Virus record (IMG/VR): IMGVR_UViG_3300035703_000036
Coordinates: 1 to 64,000 of that record
Reading direction: 5' to 3' (one strand)
Source: a virus
Length of the DNA: 64,000 bases
Under the pieces are notes generated by a model. That model was given only the letters and a program-made list of their open reading frames with translations, was not told where the DNA came from and made no database searches. Position numbers and translations under genes: made by a program. How positions within the stretch are numbered: the stretch's first letter is position 1; the number at the start of each line of letters is the position of its first letter. Below are positions 1,605 to 21,431 of the stretch, piece by piece.

Positions 1605-3908
1605 ATGGCACAACAAATTAAAAAGAAGTACCTTAAATCCGATTCAGTAGACGGTTCGAAAATTAAACTGTTGAAAGATCAGGCTTTAAGGGCTGAAGAC
1701 TCAAGTGGAGTCGAAGTAAAACTTTTAGAACTTGGTAGTTCTAATGAAGTTTTATCAAAAGGTCAAGAGATTGCCTTTAAATCTCAATTATTAGCTGAAG
1801 AAGCTGCTAGAATAGCTGGTGATGCTGCTGAAGCATCTGCTAGAGCTGCTGCTATTTCTGCTGAAGAAGCTGCTAGAATTGCAGGCGACGCTGCTGAAGC
1901 ATCTGCTAGAGCTGCTGCTGATTCTGCTATTCAATCTTCATTGAATTCAGAAATTTCTAGAGCGCAAGCTGCTGAAGGTGTTTTAACTACTAACTTAGCT
2001 GCTGAAGTAACTAGAGCTACTGCTGCTGAAGCTGCTCTTCAAGTTTCAATTGATGATGTTGACGGTTATGCTCAAGATATCCGTAACGATTTAGATCAAG
2101 AGATTTTGGATAGAGCTGCTGGTGATGCTGCTGAAGCATCTGCTAGAGCTGCTGCTATTTCTGCTGAAGCATCTGCTAGAGCTGCTGCTATTTCTGCTGA
2201 AGAAGCTGCTAGAATTGCAGGCGACGCTGCTGAAGCATCTGCTAGAGCTGCTGCTATTTCTGCTGAAGAAGCTGCTAGAATTGCAGGTGATCAAAATTTA
2301 CAAGCTCAAATCAATAATGTTATTTCTAATGTTGATCCTGCTGCTTTAGATTCTCTAACAGAAATCGTAGCTGCTTTTGAAGCTGCCGATCAAAATCTTA
2401 ACAACACTATCATCGCATTAGGAACTGCTTCTCAATCAGCTTTAGCTGCTGAAATTGCAAGAGCTACTGCTGCTGAAGAAGCTTTGGCTTCTGATTTAGC
2501 TGCTGAAATTGCAAGAGCAGAAAGCGCTGAGGAAGCATTGGCTTCTGATTTAGCTGCTGAAATTGCGAGAGCTACTGCTGCTGAAGGTGTTTTAACTGCT
2601 GATTTAGCTGCTGAAGTAACTAGAGCAGAAAGTGCTGAGGAAGCATTAGCTTCTGATTTAGCTGCTGAAGTAACTAGAGCTACTGCTGCTGAAGGTGTTT
2701 TAACTGCTGATTTAGCTGCTGAAGTAGCTAGAGCAGAAAGTGCTGAGGAAGCATTAGCTTCTGATTTACAATCTGAAGTTGAAAGAGCTATGGCTGCTGA
2801 GGGTGTTTTAACTGCTGATTTACAATCTGAAGTTGAAAGAGCTACGGCTGCTGAAGAGCTTTTAACTGATTCTAAAGTTGCTAAAGCTGGCGATACGATG
2901 ACTGGTGCATTGACTATCGATCCAGTTGGTGATGGAATGAATTACACAATGATAGATTCTAGTTATGTTGAAGTTTATTCTTCTCTACCAGATGGTTCAT
3001 ATACAGATGTAATCGTTCAAACTGACGGTTTTTCTCTTTCTAGTGATGATGGAAGTGGAAACGGAGTATTAATGCTTCTTTCTAGCCAAAATGGCGGAAC
3101 TTTCAATATCATGAAAAATGGCGAAGCTTTTATGGCTTCGGGCGAAAGTGATATTGCTACAAAAAAATATGTTGATCAACAAGATCAAGCTATTTTGGCT
3201 CAAGCTATCGTTTATGACGATGCTGTTAGAAGCTATGTTGACGCTGTTACAGGATTTATGGATGGTAGACTTGAAGGTTTGATTAATACTGAAGAGTCTG
3301 AAAGAATTGCAGCAGATGAAAATTTACAAGCTCAAATTAACAATATCGTTTCCAACGTTGATCCTGCTGCTTTAGATTCTCTAACAGAAATCGTAGCCGC
3401 ATTTCAAGCTGCTGATGAAAATTTAAATAACGCTATTTCTGCTCTTGGAACTGGATCTTCTTCTGGTTTAGCTGCTGAAATTGCAAGAGCTACTGCTGCT
3501 GAAGCTGCTATAGCTGCTGATTTAGCTGCTGAAGTAGCTAGAGCGCAAGCTGCTGAAGGTGTTTTAACTTCTGATTTAGCTGCTGAAGTAGCTAGAGCTA
3601 CTGCTGCTGAAGAAGCTTTAAGCTCAAGAGTTTCCGCTCTTGAAGCTTTAAATGACGGCCCAGAATTCCACAAGAAAAAAGTTGTGGTTGGTGCTGAATT
3701 ATCTTTTGTTGAATTAGACCATGAAGCTATTGAAAATTCAATTATGGTTTCAGTAGGAAGAATGGCTGTTCATAAAGATGAAGATTATACTGTATCTGTT
3801 GTTGGTGGTAAAACACGTTTAAGCTGGATTGGTGACTTCGCCGTTGGTGGCTTAGAAGCTATTGAAGCTGGTGATTGTGTATTTATTACTTACGCTATCA
3901 GTATCTAA
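1605..3908 (+). CDS. alanine-rich coiled-coil fibre protein
   Basis: RBS aggagaggag; 11- and 18-aa repeats; two DPAALDSLTEIVAAF motifs and KVAKAGDTMTG, typical of phage fibres. Confidence 0.8.
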   Translation: MAQQIKKKYLKSDSVDGSKIKLLKDQALRAEDSSGVEVKLLELGSSNEVLSKGQEIAFKSQLLAEEAARIAGDAAEASARAAAISAEEAARIAGDAAEASARAAADSAIQSSLNSEISRAQAAEGVLTTNLAAEVTRATAAEAALQVSIDDVDGYAQDIRNDLDQEILDRAAGDAAEASARAAAISAEASARAAAISAEEAARIAGDAAEASARAAAISAEEAARIAGDQNLQAQINNVISNVDPAALDSLTEIVAAFEAADQNLNNTIIALGTASQSALAAEIARATAAEEALASDLAAEIARAESAEEALASDLAAEIARATAAEGVLTADLAAEVTRAESAEEALASDLAAEVTRATAAEGVLTADLAAEVARAESAEEALASDLQSEVERAMAAEGVLTADLQSEVERATAAEELLTDSKVAKAGDTMTGALTIDPVGDGMNYTMIDSSYVEVYSSLPDGSYTDVIVQTDGFSLSSDDGSGNGVLMLLSSQNGGTFNIMKNGEAFMASGESDIATKKYVDQQDQAILAQAIVYDDAVRSYVDAVTGFMDGRLEGLINTEESERIAADENLQAQINNIVSNVDPAALDSLTEIVAAFQAADENLNNAISALGTGSSSGLAAEIARATAAEAAIAADLAAEVARAQAAEGVLTSDLAAEVARATAAEEALSSRVSALEALNDGPEFHKKKVVVGAELSFVELDHEAIENSIMVSVGRMAVHKDEDYTVSVVGGKTRLSWIGDFAVGGLEAIEAGDCVFITYAISI
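1790..3620 (+). repeat. intragenic tandem repeats (33-nt and 54-nt units)
   Basis: Near-identical units such as gctgaagcatctgctagagctgctgctatttct and gatttagctgctgaagtaactagagc recur; the gttgatcctgctgctttagattctctaacagaaatcgtagc block occurs twice (~2331 and ~3357). Confidence 0.9.
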
Positions 3909-3919
3909 TAATTAAAAAT

Positions 3920-3950
3920 GGGGGGAAGAATAATTCTTCCTCCTTTATTT
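3920..3950 (+). terminator. rho-independent terminator
   Basis: Hairpin GGGGGAAGAA-taa-TTCTTCCTCC followed by TTTATTT. Confidence 0.65.
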
Positions 3951-3960
3951 AGGAGACTTT

Positions 3961-6630
3961 ATGTCTATTTTTTACGTGAGGAAAAACGGGTCGGGCACTC
4001 ACACGACCATTCAAAGTGCATTTATTCAAGCTGTAAACGGAGATACTATCGATGTTGAAGCTGGTTTATTTGAAGAAAATGTTGATTTTTATAAATCAGG
4101 AATTACATTAAAAGGTGCAGGTAAAAACTTAACAGAAATAAGAGGAATTCAAGAATCTAACGTAACAAAAACTTGTACTTTTAATTCTGGCTCAACAACT
4201 CTAAACATACCTGCTGGAACTTCTGGTTGGTTAGTTGGACGTTATATTCAAGGGACAGGACTAGCTGCTGGAACTAGAATTGTATCTGTTTCTGCAACTT
4301 CTGTTACGGTTTCTATAGCTACAACTGCAGCTAAAACTAACCAAAGTGTTATCATGGTAGCAGTACCCGCTACTATAGTTGTCAGAGGGGCAAGCCATAC
4401 AATTAAAGATCTAAAAATTACAGCAGTTCAAGCTTTAGAGTCTAGATGTTTAGCTGATAATGCCGCTATTTTTTTCAGAACAAGTGGAAACGGGGAATTG
4501 CCAGCTACAAACTACATTCTTGAAGATTGTATTGTTGAAGCTAGAGGAGAAAGTGCAATTATGACAGATGCTTCTGCGTCTATCGGAAACGGTATTATTC
4601 GCAGAAACACTATTCAAGGTAAAACTTTTGTCGGATCATCAGCAGCACAAGTTCCAGCATTTGGAACAATGACTAAAACTGGTACTGTTTTATCTAACAG
4701 AACAATTCAGTTTAGTGATCTAAGCGGTATTACAGCTCCGCATGCTGGAAACTCTCAAGGAAGTGAAATAAATCCAGGCCTAAGAGTTGTTTCAATCAGT
4801 GGAAATGTCGTAACTGTTTCAGCAAATATTACAGATGCTGTTGGAACAAATAGATCTTTTTCTTTTGCTAACGTACAATTTAATTATCCTAACGTAGCCA
4901 GACAACTTGTTGTTGTTCAAGGTGTAAACACAGCAACTCAGTTTTTAAACAATACTGTTAATGGTGTAACTGGTAGTGGTATTTCTTACAATACTGCAGT
5001 AACTGTTGATACAGCTAATGCGGTTATTACAGGAAATACTCTTAATGGTGAATTCAAATATGGATACGCTTTAAGAGCAAGAGGTGCTGGATCTACGGTT
5101 AGCAATAACATGAACTACTCACTTCCTAGCAATCCAAATCAAGGATTTTTAATTGGGCCTACAGGTTCTCAAGTTTCTGGAATGAGTATAGGGTCGAACA
5201 CATCTATTTTAGCTAGTCTTATTGAATCTTCTCAAACTGCAGGAAATTCTTCGGTTTCTTTCCAAATGAGCAAAGATCAAATTAAAACTATTTCTAAGGT
5301 TTCATCTGATGCTTTTTATTCAAATGAAGCAAATTGGCACATGGTGTCTTTTGTTTATAAGAATACCAGCAACAACAAGAGACTTACTCCTTCTTTTAAA
5401 AATTTTTCAGCAAATAAAGTTTCTAAACTTCGCTACGGAATGATGAGTGGTGATGTTATGCAACTTCATAAAATCATTATTTCTAAGTCAAATAGACAAC
5501 ACTTAGTAATTAAAAGAAGCGAAATTGATGGAGCAAGTGCATTTGATTTTAGTTTAACTAACAACTCAACTGCAGCAGCTTGGAGTGGAAACTCAGGCTC
5601 AGGCGGTTCTGGTTCAGGCGGCTCAGGCTCTGGAATAACAGCTTATCAGTATTATAAGTTTGCAGTAAAATCTACATGGATAGGAAGTGGTAATGGCAAC
5701 ATGTTTAGAGCAGGGCCAGTAGGGTTATCAGATATTGCTTTTAAAGATGCAAGCGGAAATATTATCTCTATGTCAGGAGCTTCTGTTAACAATATTTATC
5801 CGTCAACAAATTATGGATTAGCTAATTTAATAAACGGATCTGTCGAACAGAATAATATAGATGATTTAGTAGTTTATAATTTAGCTGACGGCTCGATCTA
5901 TAATGATTTGTTTACAATCACTATGGCCTCGGCCGTAAGTGTTAGTAAATTGTTAATTGGCGCTCAAGGTGGAACTTCCGCTATGTATAACATGCCAAGA
6001 GAATTCAAACTTCTCGGATCTAACGATAACGTAAATTTTACTGAAATTTATGTATCAACTCCAGAAGCGACTACAGATACTTGGTTTAATTACAAAGGCA
6101 CATATAGAGAGTTTTCAATTAGCGGATCTGGTTCAGGCGGCTCAGGCTCTGGATTAACTTCATATCGTTATGTTAAATTTGCAGGAAAACAAGCATGGAG
6201 TGATAATATTGGAAATTCAATTTCTGATTATTTCGGCATGGCTGATTTTGGTTTAAAATGGGGCGGCACAAATCAAAATTTATCAAGTTATACTATAACT
6301 AATCTTTACGAATTAGCACAAAATCCTCAAGGTTTTGGTGCTTTAACTGATGGTACAGTTAGCAGCGGTTCGAACTATGTTAGTTGGCAACCAAACAATA
6401 CAATGAGAGATTTGTTTGTCGTTGACTTGAATAGTCCTCAGCAAATAACTGACGTATTAATTGCTCCTGTTTATGCAGGAGGAAATTACGGCAATCACAT
6501 TCCAAAAGAATTCAAAGTTTACGGTTCTTTGGATGGAGTTAATTATACGGAAATACTATCTGTAAATCAAACTGATTCTTCTTCATGGATAGGTAAAGGC
6601 GGCACTTATGCGTCTTTTCCTGTAAACTAA
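3961..6630 (+). CDS. tailspike/fibre: right-handed beta-helix (pectin-lyase-like) plus two discoidin (F5/8 type C)-like domains
   Basis: N-terminus YVRKNGSGTHTTIQSAF..A..GDTIDVEAG is a beta-helix cap; GSGGSG linkers; two PREFKLLGSNDNVNFTEI / PKEFKVYGSLDGVNYTEI motifs. Confidence 0.75.
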   Translation: MSIFYVRKNGSGTHTTIQSAFIQAVNGDTIDVEAGLFEENVDFYKSGITLKGAGKNLTEIRGIQESNVTKTCTFNSGSTTLNIPAGTSGWLVGRYIQGTGLAAGTRIVSVSATSVTVSIATTAAKTNQSVIMVAVPATIVVRGASHTIKDLKITAVQALESRCLADNAAIFFRTSGNGELPATNYILEDCIVEARGESAIMTDASASIGNGIIRRNTIQGKTFVGSSAAQVPAFGTMTKTGTVLSNRTIQFSDLSGITAPHAGNSQGSEINPGLRVVSISGNVVTVSANITDAVGTNRSFSFANVQFNYPNVARQLVVVQGVNTATQFLNNTVNGVTGSGISYNTAVTVDTANAVITGNTLNGEFKYGYALRARGAGSTVSNNMNYSLPSNPNQGFLIGPTGSQVSGMSIGSNTSILASLIESSQTAGNSSVSFQMSKDQIKTISKVSSDAFYSNEANWHMVSFVYKNTSNNKRLTPSFKNFSANKVSKLRYGMMSGDVMQLHKIIISKSNRQHLVIKRSEIDGASAFDFSLTNNSTAAAWSGNSGSGGSGSGGSGSGITAYQYYKFAVKSTWIGSGNGNMFRAGPVGLSDIAFKDASGNIISMSGASVNNIYPSTNYGLANLINGSVEQNNIDDLVVYNLADGSIYNDLFTITMASAVSVSKLLIGAQGGTSAMYNMPREFKLLGSNDNVNFTEIYVSTPEATTDTWFNYKGTYREFSISGSGSGGSGSGLTSYRYVKFAGKQAWSDNIGNSISDYFGMADFGLKWGGTNQNLSSYTITNLYELAQNPQGFGALTDGTVSSGSNYVSWQPNNTMRDLFVVDLNSPQQITDVLIAPVYAGGNYGNHIPKEFKVYGSLDGVNYTEILSVNQTDSSSWIGKGGTYASFPVN

Positions 6631-16148: not shown

Positions 16149-19100
16149 ATGTCTTATTTATCGCCAGATACCAAAGATAGGATTATCATATCTCTTGCCA
16201 GATTAGAGGCGGGAGTAGAAGTTATCGCAGCATTGGAAGCAAGTGGTGGCGGAATCACTGAAGAACAAGTTCAATTGATGATCAACACAGCTATTACAGC
16301 TTTAATAGACGGCGCCCCAGGCGCTTTAGATACTTTAAATGAATTAGCCGCAGCATTAGCAGATGATGAAAACTTTGCTGCGACAATTGCGACGGCTTTA
16401 GGCAATAAAGAAGATAAAATCACAGCAGGAACTATTTTACAATATTGGCGCGGTGATAAAACTTGGCAAACGTTAGATAAAAACGCTATCGGTCTTGATC
16501 AAGTAGACAATACCTCAGATGCTGACAAGCCTATCAGCGATGCTACTCAGTTAGCGTTAGATAATTTACAATTAGATGTAGATAACAAGGTCGCAAAAGA
16601 CGGCGATACAATGTCTGGATCATTAACAATTGATCTAAGCATTCCAAGCAGTATTCAAACTACTGATCTTGATGGCGCTAATATGTACATTCATTTTACA
16701 GATGATGCAACAAATTTAGATGTCAACACTTCACTAGAGCCAGGCGGAATTGGCTATCATTATCAAGATAACACGGTCAATAATTATATGGCAATGAATG
16801 GGCCAGATGGACAATTGAGTTTATACAATATTCAATCCTCTGTACTATACCCAACATTACCCACAAGCGATGAACACGTAACAACTAAAGCTTACGTTGA
16901 TTCAAAAGTAGAAGACTCCATAACAGACGGCGTAACAACTAAGGCTCCATCTCAAAATGCAGTATTTGACGCGTTGGCAGGAAAGTTTGATGCTATAGAT
17001 TTCAAAAATTTTAACTACGATCAAACTATGTATGTGGCAAAAAATGGCAATGACTCTACAGGAACTGGAGGTCAGCATAGTCCATTCTTAACTATTACTG
17101 CCGCTATGAACGCAATTTCTGATGCCAGCCCAACTAAAAGATACTGTATTAAAGTTGCTGCAGGTAATTATACTGAAGCTTCTTTGGCTTTGAAAGCAAA
17201 TGTATTTATCGTAGGTGAAGGTCAAAAGGACTCAGTCAGAATTACCGGAGCTGTTTCGATGGGGCCAAGTTTTATGGCCAATTCTTCTTTTGATAACCGC
17301 TCAGGTTTTTCAATGGTATCACTTCTTTCGGTTTGTGATTTCAATTGGAATACCGTTCAGTCCGCTGCAGGAAAATTATATTTTAATGAAGTAACATTTG
17401 CCTCTACTGTAAGTCTATACGGATATAATAATGCAATAGCTCAAGCTCAATTTGATAGTTGTGTTATTTTTGGGGCAATGACCATTTCCGGAATTAACGT
17501 TGGTGTTTATACTAATAACGTAAATTATGCTAACATTACCTTAAATCAACATCCAAACGGCGGAATGGCCACTATTTTAAGTACCGCTGGAGGATATTGC
17601 GCTGGAACTGTTTCTCTTGTTACTTCAGTAACCGACTTTAATCGTAGATGTTCTCTTTTTGCTCGTTCATTTTGGATGAACGCTCTAACTGTAAACGGCG
17701 CTTCATCTTATGCTGACGTAACTTATTCAAGTTTACCTTCTGCGGGGCCAACAATACTCAATGGCGGTAATGTAGTTTATATTAATCCAAGTTCAACCGG
17801 AGCAAATACTCAACTTTCTAATCTTGCTTTTCCTACAGCGGTAAATAATCCAATTATGCCTGCCGTTACAAGCAATACTAATTTAGGTGATTGGGGAAAA
17901 CAGTGGAATTGGACTTTTTCATACGTACACGGCTCTTCAGGTTCAGACTGCTATGTAATTAGCTATCCAAGCTCTTACGCGCCTGATAGTTCAGGTAGAG
18001 AAGTTGGTATTTATGCGGACGGTGCAGGTCTTCAAACAAACGTTAACGGCGGAAATATTACGTTAGGAACTTCCGCAGTATCGGGAACAGGGATCAGAGG
18101 AAAGGTTCAAGTTGACGCTAGAGAGCTTGACATGACTTCTTCCAAAATTACTAATTTAGCCGACGGAACAGCTTCTTCAGATGCGGTTAACAAAGGTCAG
18201 CTCGATGGAAAATTTAATAATCCAACAGGAACTGTTGCTGATTATATAGCGGGAGACGGATCTATTCAGCCATTCCCAACCATAGCAACTGCTTCAAATT
18301 TAACTACAGAAGTTTATAACAAAAGCGGATCTCAGATCAATAAATTTCAAGTGGTCTATATTAATGGTGGACAAGGAAATTTACCAGCTATTACATTAGC
18401 TCAAGGTAATTCTGAAGCAACTTCAAGTAAAACTTATGGAGTTGCTCAAGCAGACATTTCAAACATGAGCAATGGATATGTTTTAGCTCAAGGTAGAATT
18501 GAAAATATTGATACGGCAGTTTATGGCGGAACCGAAGGAACTTCATTGTGGTTGAGTCCGACCGTTGCTGGCGGAGTAACCATTACAAAACCATCAGCCC
18601 CTGATCACATGGTATTTGTCGGGACTATTGTTAGATCTCACCCAACACAAGGTGTTGTTGAAGTAAAAATTCAAAATGGTTTTGAGCTTCAAGAATTGCA
18701 CAATGTTGCAATTAATGGATCTCTTGCTAACAACGATACTCTTCTATATGATTCTGCAACGCAGCTTTGGAAAAACTCTTCAGCAGGGTCTGTTGTTAAT
18801 AAATTAACAAAGGGTACAAAAACTATTTTCTGTATCGACAATGGAGATTTTGCAACAGGACAAGCAGCAATCGATGCCGCCTCTCCAAATGATATTATTA
18901 TATTCGGTACTAAAGCTGGTGGATGGGGAGATCTAGTTATTCCTGCCGGAAAAACTCTTTCATTAAAAGGTTTACAGGCTGGAAGAAGTCCAAATATGGT
19001 TCAGGTTGGATCTATTACATTTAGCCCGACAACAGGTGCGAACATACTTCAGAACGAACTTTATATCGATAGCTTATACATTTATAGTACAACAGCGGAT

Positions 19101-19676
19101 TGCATTACTCACGGCGGAACTGCTCCGTCTCGTATAAGAATTAGTAATTGCTACATTAATTGCGCTGGAGCAGCTACTAGGGCTGTGGTATTTTCAAATA
19201 CTCACGCTACTTCATCGTCTTATTTGTATGACAATATAATTGGATCTTCTGCTGCGGCTACCGTAATTCAATCAAGCATAGCTTATGCTAGAGCATACAG
19301 AAATAGCGTAGACGGATCTAACGTAGGGATTACTTTGACAGCCGGAACTTTTGAAAATAATCTAACAAATTATTCAATCAATTTTGCAGGAAATGTTGCA
19401 AATATTACCGGCGGAACTTTTTTATGTGGATATTCGCTTATTTCAAATACGGGCGCAAATAGCTCTGGAGTTGCGGTTTCAACCGGAGCGGTTTTTGCAA
19501 GTTCTTACAACTCATTTTCAATTCCAACAGGAACTGGATATTGCGTAAGAGGAACTGGCGTTCATGTGTACGGATCTATGACTTTTGCAAACTCAGTACT
19601 CGCTGCTTATAACGTAAAAGTACAAAATACATTAACAAACGTAGCATATACTACGGCATTTACATTAACACCATAA
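16149..19676 (+). CDS. tail fibre/tailspike with two beta-helix regions
   Basis: APGALDTLNELAAAL, VDNTSDADKPIS, YVAKNGNDSTG..G..PFLTITAA and KITNLADGTASSDAVNK motifs. Confidence 0.8.
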   Translation: MSYLSPDTKDRIIISLARLEAGVEVIAALEASGGGITEEQVQLMINTAITALIDGAPGALDTLNELAAALADDENFAATIATALGNKEDKITAGTILQYWRGDKTWQTLDKNAIGLDQVDNTSDADKPISDATQLALDNLQLDVDNKVAKDGDTMSGSLTIDLSIPSSIQTTDLDGANMYIHFTDDATNLDVNTSLEPGGIGYHYQDNTVNNYMAMNGPDGQLSLYNIQSSVLYPTLPTSDEHVTTKAYVDSKVEDSITDGVTTKAPSQNAVFDALAGKFDAIDFKNFNYDQTMYVAKNGNDSTGTGGQHSPFLTITAAMNAISDASPTKRYCIKVAAGNYTEASLALKANVFIVGEGQKDSVRITGAVSMGPSFMANSSFDNRSGFSMVSLLSVCDFNWNTVQSAAGKLYFNEVTFASTVSLYGYNNAIAQAQFDSCVIFGAMTISGINVGVYTNNVNYANITLNQHPNGGMATILSTAGGYCAGTVSLVTSVTDFNRRCSLFARSFWMNALTVNGASSYADVTYSSLPSAGPTILNGGNVVYINPSSTGANTQLSNLAFPTAVNNPIMPAVTSNTNLGDWGKQWNWTFSYVHGSSGSDCYVISYPSSYAPDSSGREVGIYADGAGLQTNVNGGNITLGTSAVSGTGIRGKVQVDARELDMTSSKITNLADGTASSDAVNKGQLDGKFNNPTGTVADYIAGDGSIQPFPTIATASNLTTEVYNKSGSQINKFQVVYINGGQGNLPAITLAQGNSEATSSKTYGVAQADISNMSNGYVLAQGRIENIDTAVYGGTEGTSLWLSPTVAGGVTITKPSAPDHMVFVGTIVRSHPTQGVVEVKIQNGFELQELHNVAINGSLANNDTLLYDSATQLWKNSSAGSVVNKLTKGTKTIFCIDNGDFATGQAAIDAASPNDIIIFGTKAGGWGDLVIPAGKTLSLKGLQAGRSPNMVQVGSITFSPTTGANILQNELYIDSLYIYSTTADCITHGGTAPSRIRISNCYINCAGAATRAVVFSNTHATSSSYLYDNIIGSSAAATVIQSSIAYARAYRNSVDGSNVGITLTAGTFENNLTNYSINFAGNVANITGGTFLCGYSLISNTGANSSGVAVSTGAVFASSYNSFSIPTGTGYCVRGTGVHVYGSMTFANSVLAAYNVKVQNTLTNVAYTTAFTLTP

Positions 19677-19731: not shown

Positions 19732-19762
19732 ACAGAGGGGCTTAAAACGCCCCTTTGTTTTT
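19732..19762 (+). terminator. rho-independent terminator
   Basis: Hairpin ACAGAGGGGC-ttaaaac-GCCCCTTTGT followed by a T run. Confidence 0.8.
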
Positions 19763-19802: not shown

Positions 19803-20351
19803 ATGAATAAAGAAATAATAGAAACAATCCAATTAACTCTAAGTTCACTTAAACGCGATCCCATCGTATGTGCCAGAATTTTTTCCATAATATTTCTGTT
19901 TTATAAATTTCTCAAGAAAGACAGGATGTTCAGAGTAGATTTTCAAGCCATTATAAATTTTACAGTGTTCATGATTATGGTTACGCTTGTAAGGCTGATA
20001 GTTTTGGTTAATTTTCCAATCACAGTTCCAGCAGGATTAGAACAAGTCTCAAACATAGGAATTCTATTTGTCTTCTGGGAAGATTTGTTTTTTGCTTATC
20101 CGATCATTATAGTAGAAAACTATATCAACAACAAATACCTGAGAAATCTCCTAATTTTTGCCATTTCTTTTATGTTTATGATGGGCCATACTTATCAAGG
20201 TTTAAGAGGTCTAATCACTATTGTCATACCTTATTTTGTAATGGCTAAGGTCGGAAAGAAATACGGCTTAGGAACTTCAATGGTTGGTCACGTTATGTAT
20301 GATTTATTCACAGTGTTGACCGTTATTTTTGCATTAGCTTTATTGCCTTAG
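19803..20351 (+). CDS. CPBP (CAAX/Abi) family intramembrane protease
   Basis: Multi-TM protein; WEDLFF, FMMGHTYQG and GHVMYD match the ExxxR-like, FxxxH and HxxxD/N motifs. Confidence 0.75.
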   Translation: MNKEIIETIQLTLSSLKRDPIVCARIFSIIFLFYKFLKKDRMFRVDFQAIINFTVFMIMVTLVRLIVLVNFPITVPAGLEQVSNIGILFVFWEDLFFAYPIIIVENYINNKYLRNLLIFAISFMFMMGHTYQGLRGLITIVIPYFVMAKVGKKYGLGTSMVGHVMYDLFTVLTVIFALALLP

Positions 20352-21129: not shown

Positions 21130-21143
21130 TGTTAATATTATAT

Positions 21144-21217
21144 GCGGGTGTAGTTTAGCTAAAACGCCGGCAATTCCATGCCGGAGATGGCGGTGAAAAT
21201 CCGACCTGCCCGCTCCA
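21144..21217 (+). tRNA. atypical tRNA-Gly-like RNA (TCC within an 8-nt loop, encoded CCA)
   Basis: Acceptor GCGGGTG/TGCCCGC plus T73 and CCA; D stem GTTT/AAAC; anticodon stem CCGGC/GCCGG with loop AATTCCAT; T stem GGCGG/CCG(A)CC with loop TGAAAAT. Confidence 0.85.
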
Positions 21218-21233: not shown

Positions 21234-21431
21234 ATGGATCGTAAAGATGATATGCTTTTTGCATATTGGTGGTCAAAAGTTCAATCTGAATTTCCTAGAA
21301 TCAACAAAAACGATGCCAAAGAAATCTTTTTATCGGCTTGCAACATTAAAAATAAACAAATTGAAGAATTAGAAACAAAAACCAAGCAATCGTCCAGTCA
21401 AGATAAAAGTCAAAAGCTCAGCGAATTATAA
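21234..21431 (+). CDS. hypothetical protein (paralogue family with 22329 and 26966)
   Basis: RBS aaggag; MD.KD...F..W...AC..KNKQ pattern. Confidence 0.6.
   Translation: MDRKDDMLFAYWWSKVQSEFPRINKNDAKEIFLSACNIKNKQIEELETKTKQSSSQDKSQKLSEL

Follow-up and report, generated by a model that had tools for sequence, protein, structure and literature searches.

The Mom protein of phage Mu moves glycine from Gly-tRNAGly to the N6 of adenine in double-stranded DNA, which gives N6-carbamoylmethyl-adenine (Silva et al., Nat Commun 2026, PMC13219725; preprint 2023). All three E. coli tRNAGly isoacceptors are active as donors and Gly-tRNAAla is inactive, and the glycine source is described by the authors as a scavenged host resource (PMC13219725). 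Neither this paper nor the 2023 preprint mentions a phage-encoded or tRNA-like partner of Mom. Here a tRNA-Gly-like RNA is described that lies beside a mom gene in a viral stretch of 64,000 nucleotides (positions 1 to 64,000 of IMG/VR record IMGVR_UViG_3300035703_000036, hereafter the window). The enzyme encoded in the window is of the same family and fold as Mu Mom (8bv8), and the chemistry proposed for it is that shown for Mu. Mu has no tRNA of its own and uses the translational tRNAGly of its host, whereas the phage of the window carries its own, deformed RNA.

Non-proteogenic tRNAGly have been described in Staphylococcus, where NP1-3 serve as donors for FmhB, FemA and FemB (Rietmeyer et al., NAR 2020, PMC7826273). 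In S. aureus their binding to EF-Tu is poor, and the GNAT-fold FmhB prefers them on account of determinants in the D and T arms, and the identity set of the bacterial glycyl-tRNA synthetase (GlyRS) is given as G1-C72, C2-G71, G3-C70, U73, C35 and C36 (PMC7826273). The window RNA resembles them in the retention of GlyRS identity, in the altered D and T arms and in the association with a GNAT-fold transferase that is not part of translation. The staphylococcal RNAs are cellular, are confined to a single lineage, form a regular cloverleaf with a 7-nt loop and serve cell-wall synthesis, whereas the window RNA is encoded by a virus, combines a bulged T stem with an 8-nt loop and adjoins the gene of the enzyme, and its acceptor would be DNA. 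Poor EF-Tu binding was measured for the staphylococcal RNAs and we infer it for the window RNA. Because its acceptor stem and anticodon resemble those of an ordinary bacterial tRNA-Gly(UCC), the window RNA is taken as an analogue of the staphylococcal RNAs and not as a member of their group, and shared descent is not expected.

A conserved 76-bp tRNA-Gly-like 'pseudo-tRNA' was found in the first 150 bp of the mom homologue in the ssrA genomic islands of Dehalococcoides (McMurdie et al., BMC Genomics 2011, PMC3146451). It was reported as a conserved locus and primer target, was given no function and predates the knowledge of the Mom co-substrate (PMC3146451). Its layout, matched here by description only, is that of the relatives of the window RNA in which the RNA lies early in the Mom frame; the window RNA itself, separated from the mom stop codon by 14 nt, is not part of the gene. 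As a viral tRNA mimic that follows a coding region and has a CCA end, the window RNA also recalls the aminoacylatable tRNA-like structures of plant viruses (TYMV). The latter are found at the 3' ends of RNA genomes, have pseudoknotted acceptor arms and play roles in replication and translation.

Table 1. Features of the window RNA and of the neighbouring genes (window coordinates)
Feature	Position	Strand	Description
tRNA-Gly-like RNA	21144..21217	+	74 nt, full cloverleaf, encoded CCA
Acceptor stem, 5' strand GCGGGUG	21144..21150	+	pairs with 21207-21213 (UGCCCGC)
D arm	21153..21165	+	4-bp stem GUUU/AAAC (21153-21156 with 21162-21165)
Anticodon arm	21167..21184	+	CCGGC/GCCGG (21167-21171 with 21180-21184), loop AAUUCCAU
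T arm	21189..21206	+	GGCGG, loop UGAAAAU, CCG-A-CC
Bulged A, T stem 3' strand	21204	+	family hallmark
Discriminator U73 and CCA	21214..21217	+	U at 21214, CCA at 21215-21217
Mom-family GNAT gene, 258 aa	20353..21129	+	Pfam, PHROG, sequence, fold
182-aa ORF	19803..20351	+	ends 1 nt before mom
Terminator-like hairpin and T run	19732..19758	+	10-bp stem, 6 GC pairs, T-rich tail
Next ORF, 65 aa, no family	21234..21431	+	ribosome-binding site AAGGAG

The window RNA forms a four-arm cloverleaf with a 7-bp acceptor stem, as judged by sequence, fold and covariation (Table 1). The acceptor pairs are G-C, C-G, G-C, G-C, G-C, U.G and G.U, followed by U8 and A9. The D loop (AGCUA) has 5 nt, 2 nt fewer than in relatives, and is without G18 and G19. 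The anticodon loop AAUUCCAU includes UUCC, and its terminal A and U are able to pair, giving a 6-bp stem with a 6-nt loop which is the minimum-energy fold; the variable region is AGAU. The original prediction held that this RNA keeps the glycine identity elements and breaks those specific to translation, and both parts could be read in the sequence. All the GlyRS identity nucleotides are present (G1-C72, C2-G71, G3-C70, U73 and, in the loop CC, C35 and C36), together with the CCA. The set of elbow and decoding features, namely D-loop G18 G19, T-loop U54 U55 C56 and a 7-nt anticodon loop with U33, is not kept: the D loop is cut down and lacks GG, the T loop is UGAAAAU, the T stem has the bulged A and the anticodon loop is of 8 nt. 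All four stems pair, and the GC content of the RNA is 0.58 in surroundings of about 0.35, again as predicted.

ARAGORN found no tRNA genes in the 64-kb window. The Rfam tRNA model RF00005 matched the window RNA over its full length with 23 bits (E 0.001 over the 104.6-kb viral contig; gathering score 29), and this was the sole tRNA-like match on that contig. The folding energy of the single sequence is unremarkable (z -1.56), and for this reason the case for the RNA rests on the compensatory changes seen in its relatives.

A search of the RNA with blastn-short against the first 80 Mom loci returned L070 as the sole match, a partial one of 33 nt just 5' of a 31%-identical Mom. With a covariance model of two sequences an RNA was found just 5' of the 80%-identical Mom of L002, and the remaining relatives were reached by covariance models and IUPAC patterns. 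Two DNA patterns made from the 3' half of the RNA identified 71 viral loci, 70 of which fit the covariance model (38 distinct sequences). A same-strand Mom ORF, recognized by a Mom profile built here, touches the RNA in 67 of these 70 loci; Pfam confirmation was obtained for 6 of the RNA-touching Mom ORFs. A looser pattern gave 65 matches in bacterial and archaeal genome bins, which is about the chance number for 17 fixed bases in 596 Gb. Nine of the 65 fit the model at the pattern site and Mom adjoins seven of these nine, against none of the other 56; leaving out L213, a genome flagged unpublished, the counts are eight real RNAs, six of them with Mom. The linkage was also approached from the side of the enzyme. 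Among 80 loci ascertained by a Mom protein motif alone, the RNA lies directly beside Mom in 50 and no match was obtained in 30. It is mostly 3' of Mom in these 50 loci, directly 5' in 6 and on the opposite strand in 7. The 3' position, the commonest type in this sample, is that of the window. ARAGORN detects only 8 of the 50 RNAs, 2 of them as tRNA-Gly, and misses 42.

The window RNA shows the features by which the Mom-linked family is recognized (cloverleaf, U73, first acceptor pairs, T-stem bulge and an abutting Mom). It is a typical member in its layout, but the D loop is unusually short and the T loop is of a rarer form.

The contact with Mom bears on the idea that the RNA is a decoy or a spare tRNAGly directed against host defences or toxins that act on tRNAGly, such as GNAT toxins and anticodon nucleases, and is unrelated to the chemistry of Mom. 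Phage tRNAs do offset tRNA-targeting defences, some GNAT toxins acetylate Gly-tRNAGly specifically, and the retained GlyRS identity elements would suit such a role. Toxins acting on Gly-tRNAGly are also alluded to in the Mu Mom paper (PMC13219725). We nevertheless hold a decoy to be improbable, since it leaves the contact with Mom in 67/70 and 50/80 loci unexplained, and a translational spare could not do without a functional anticodon loop, T loop and EF-Tu surface, precisely what the RNA has lost.

The RNA is an accessory of Mom and no requirement for it, as Mu and the loci L003-L027 are without one. In these 25 loci, whose Mom proteins are 54-65% identical to that of the window, no tRNA-like RNA was found within 3 kb. 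The RNA is 5' of mom in L002 and 3' of it in the window and in L028 (43%-identical Mom). It follows from these differences in layout and presence that the RNA is often gained, lost or moved. The locus L005 (63%-identical Mom) is without the deformed RNA and has an ordinary array of 18 tRNAs at 3753-6481, beginning 48 nt past mom, in which a tRNA-Gly(UCC) occupies 4633-4704. Megablast of the 3-kb region and blastn of the RNA of a relative gave no match among cultured phages. A related Mom (29% identity) occurs in one cultured phage only, Vibrio phage 501E54-1, in which no such RNA was found even with the model filters off.

The pairing of the RNA is maintained throughout the family. In an alignment of 8 sequences 98.2% of the pair cells hold standard pairs and 13 of the 21 pairs have changed on both sides; for 45 distinct Mom-ascertained sequences 97.5% are paired and 18 of 21 pairs have changed on both sides, these alignments having been fitted to the covariance model, which brings some bias towards its structure. 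Controls with slid partners were paired at 35-51%, and no shuffle reached the observed scores. The window RNA is 60% identical to its nearest relative, that of L002, from which it differs at 13 of the 21 pairs, and all 13 still pair. All five pairs of the anticodon stem covary in relatives, and pairs of the T and D stems do so too.

These data bear out the earlier argument for selection on structure. Stem-breaking substitutions in homologues, which had been named as the mark of pseudogene decay, were looked for and the homologues do not show them, the pair cells being kept at the level given above. A tRNA-Gly pseudogene in decay, left over from a vanished tRNA array or from an integration site, would agree with the rejection or sub-threshold scoring of the window RNA by standard finders, and a tRNA array with a tRNA-Gly(UCC) does lie just past mom in L005. 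Decay is however the least credible of the explanations considered here: the pairs that differ from those of L002 are all still paired, covariation extends over most pairs family-wide, and peculiarities like the bulged A are met again in phages of many environments and in bins of several phyla.

The pattern of retained identity and broken translation features, predicted for the window RNA, extends to the whole Mom-linked family (49 and 90 distinct RNAs). U73, G1-C72 and C2-G71 are invariant in 49 distinct Mom-linked RNAs and G3-C70 is present in 45 of them, while pairs 4-7 covary freely. The CCA is encoded in 34 of the 49 and absent in 15. In 47 of the 49 a purine (A in 46) bulges from the 3' strand of the T stem. 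Among 90 distinct RNAs, 86 have CC, for the most part within UCC, in the loop of the anticodon arm. In members parsed by hand the anticodon loop on the 5-bp stem has 6, 7 or 8 nt, and position 33 may be U, A, G or C. The GG of the D loop is usually missing in relatives, and the T loop is mostly UGCAAnU and not UUCGAnU; the UGAAAAU form is common to the window RNA and L002 only. What stays constant is thus the set of GlyRS identity elements. Those parts on which the ribosome and EF-Tu depend are free to vary, and such a pattern suits a substrate of GlyRS and not a decoder.

An unusual but working tRNAGly, reading GGA or a four-base codon, is accordingly a very improbable reading. In its favour, the loop contains UCC, and +1 frameshift suppressor tRNAs classically have an anticodon loop of 8 nt. 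The original prediction had mentioned such a quadruplet decoder as a weaker alternative; it finds no support here, because the loop length varies from 6 to 8 nt and U33 is often missing among relatives whose Mom proteins are 30-80% identical. Moreover the RNA has neither the GG of the D loop nor the UUC of the T loop, its T stem carries a bulge, and ARAGORN rejects 42 of 50 relatives. Genuine tRNA-Gly(UCC) recovered with the same model are by comparison fully canonical. A search with covariance model R2 of 151 genomes of the Chloroflexota, the phylum of L204, gave, at the threshold applied, 14 matches in 13 genomes, with the length and score of tRNA-Gly(UCC). The nine that were inspected (among L316-L325) are all canonical tRNA-Gly(UCC) with no Mom nearby, from which it follows that R2 alone is unspecific. 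It scores cellular tRNA-Gly(UCC) at 66-71 bits, equal to many family members, and a census therefore needs a filter for the T-stem bulge or for adjacency to Mom.

Several variants of the RNA were observed. In miniature members of 67-70 nt the D arm is a stub (L233:1830-1896, L244:1677-1743, L301:1880-1947, L100:1289-1356 (-) and L106:2365-2432, with L168:4293-4365 (-) in this group of variants). CC is missing from the anticodon-arm loop of three variants, which have UUC or AUU there; their half made up of acceptor and T arm is intact. Copies on the opposite strand just past mom are found in L296:1834-1906 (-), L298, L273:1888-1961 (-), L271, L297, L292 and L246. These seven are near-canonical tRNA-Gly(UCC): the D loop has GG, the T loop reads UUCGAnU, the anticodon loop is of 7 nt and no CCA is encoded. 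They nevertheless retain the 4-bp T stem with the bulged A. In L227, which holds the closest Mom relative of L118, the place occupied by the RNA in L118 is taken at 1130-1190 by a GC-rich nested hairpin (GGCGAT...ATCGCC) with no match to the model and no CCA; it may be a further reduced derivative of the RNA.

In the 5' layout the RNA lies inside the Mom reading frame, as in L083:1839-1914 (-), L094:1971-2046 (-), L082:2137-2212 (+) and L070:2861-2936 (+). Further loci of this type required an alignment as query, a single-protein search giving just 8. Of 27 distinct RNAs, 26 are traversed by the Mom frame without a stop codon, whereas the other two frames stay open in 8 and 4. In 24 of the 27 a start codon of the Mom frame stands 7-13 nt before G1, and the Pfam Mom domain starts directly past the CCA. 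The encoded peptide (CGDS...DGGAIPTSPLQ) varies along with the compensatory changes of the stems and thus looks like a by-product of the RNA. One transcript of this layout would give either the RNA or the protein.

The embedded RNAs lead to the main rival explanation, which is that the RNA is a cis-acting tRNA-like element of the mom transcript, either a signal that directs processing or punctuation by RNase P and 3' nucleases or a control of mom translation or mRNA stability, and has no carrier role. The RNA is nearly always on the mom strand and touches the gene, 5' inside the frame or 3', sometimes overlapping the stop codon, and in the window no terminator separates it from the flanking genes. 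On the downstream side this is seen from the AAGGAG of the 65-aa ORF, which follows the A run after the CCA. In Mu, mom is under elaborate post-transcriptional control. A purely cis-acting element is still considered unlikely. A processing signal needs the shape of the acceptor and T arms and neither an invariant U73, 1-72 and 2-71 nor a distal CC in 86/90, the RNA is on the opposite strand in 7 loci, and its occurrence 5' or 3' of mom alike is a poor fit to a translational operator. The two roles, in cis and as a carrier, do not exclude each other.

The identification of the enzyme is supported by several methods. The window Mom matches Pfam PF25680 with an E value of 4.6e-26 (92.2 bits, cut-off 27.1), falls in PHROG 1384 ('Mom-like DNA modification protein') and matches the Mu Mom crystal chain 8bv8 by phmmer. 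Its AF2 model (pLDDT 82) has 8bv8 as the top PDB fold match (Foldseek, E 7e-11), ahead of TmcA and of ordinary acetyltransferases. R111, S124, D149 and Y159 of Mu align with R116, S129, D151 and Y161 of the window Mom, the chain numbers being about 9 below the native ones because the crystal chain is without the first 10 residues, an offset that we deduced. R116 and Y161 do not vary among 24 diverse Mom proteins. By the same deduced numbering R151, which like R111, S124 and D149 is essential in Mu, corresponds to L153. There are no equivalents of Mu H58/Y59, and the window Mom has a 46-aa N-terminal extension unlike that of Mu.

The strong terminator-like hairpin upstream of the 182-aa ORF probably marks the start of a transcription unit with mom and the RNA. 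The 182-aa ORF has no confident family, a weak Rce1-like match being below the cut-off. Upstream of the hairpin, a 1175-aa ORF (16149-19676) that carries a YadA-stalk repeat, the coiled stalk of trimeric autotransporter adhesins, is probably a tail fibre. A promoter scan around the window RNA gave sites no more numerous than in shuffled sequence, and TTGATT-16-GATAAT, which ends at 21130, is only a possible promoter. In L002 the RNA and mom are preceded, at 2843-2902, by a promoter close to consensus (TTGACA, 18 nt, TATTGT), which suggests that the two form one transcription unit there. The contig, with an estimated completeness of 66%, was searched for a class II synthetase core and for a GlyRS alpha subunit, and neither was found.

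The structure of the RNA, its pattern of conservation and its tight linkage to Mom are shown by the comparisons above, and the window RNA is probably a glycyl carrier that is dedicated to the adjacent Mom and takes no part in translation. It would be transcribed with mom or just after it, from the same strand, and excised by the tRNA-processing enzymes of the host, with RNase P cutting at G21144 and trimming up to the encoded CCA. Host GlyRS would then charge it, as is proposed because the RNA keeps G1-C72, C2-G71, G3-C70, U73, C35 and C36, which are well-established determinants of the bacterial enzyme. EF-Tu and the ribosome would use the charged RNA poorly, owing to the bulge in the T stem, the 8-nt anticodon loop and the loss of the contacts made by the GG of the D loop and the UUC of the T loop; weak EF-Tu binding in particular is suggested by the position of the bulged A between the T-stem pairs that set the affinity, together with the altered loops. 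Mom would finally move the glycyl group from the 3' end of the RNA to the N6 of adenine in double-stranded phage DNA, where the glycyl-adenine adduct would rearrange to N6-carbamoylmethyl-adenine and block restriction enzymes. The window Mom may prefer or need this RNA. Some points speak against a carrier: Mu and the loci L003-L027 do without the RNA and 30/80 Mom-ascertained loci gave no match, the CCA is not encoded in 15/49 RNAs, three variants lack the loop CC, and the RNAs embedded 5' could mean a cis role.

It is conceivable, though doubtful, that Mom and the RNA form an orthogonal pair, in which the bulged T arm is both an anti-determinant for EF-Tu and a determinant for Mom, the glycine pool is private, and an RNA lying in frame acts as a switch for the ratio of enzyme to cofactor. 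Such a pair, if real, would place activated glycine beyond the reach of translation and would work in any host whose GlyRS charges the RNA.

The chemistry of Mom (2023 preprint, 2026 paper) and the non-proteogenic tRNAGly of staphylococci were already known. Our literature search found no paper that links tRNA-Gly-like RNAs of this kind to the use of Gly-tRNA by Mom. Since standard finders miss 42/50, phage annotation under-reports these RNAs. Mom homologues assayed heterologously without their own RNA could falsely score as inactive. The co-substrate of Mom was an open question for decades and has only lately been identified as host Gly-tRNAGly; if a glycyl carrier of the kind proposed here is at work in many phages, comparative genomics alone would independently support a tRNA-dependent mechanism. 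The RNAs would in that case be natural minimal substrates of GlyRS, of 67-77 nt and with reduced D and anticodon arms, that point to the parts which GlyRS and Mom need. They would be the first viral counterpart, as far as we have found, to the staphylococcal non-proteogenic tRNAGly, and would extend the use of dedicated non-translational tRNAs from cell-wall synthesis to DNA modification.
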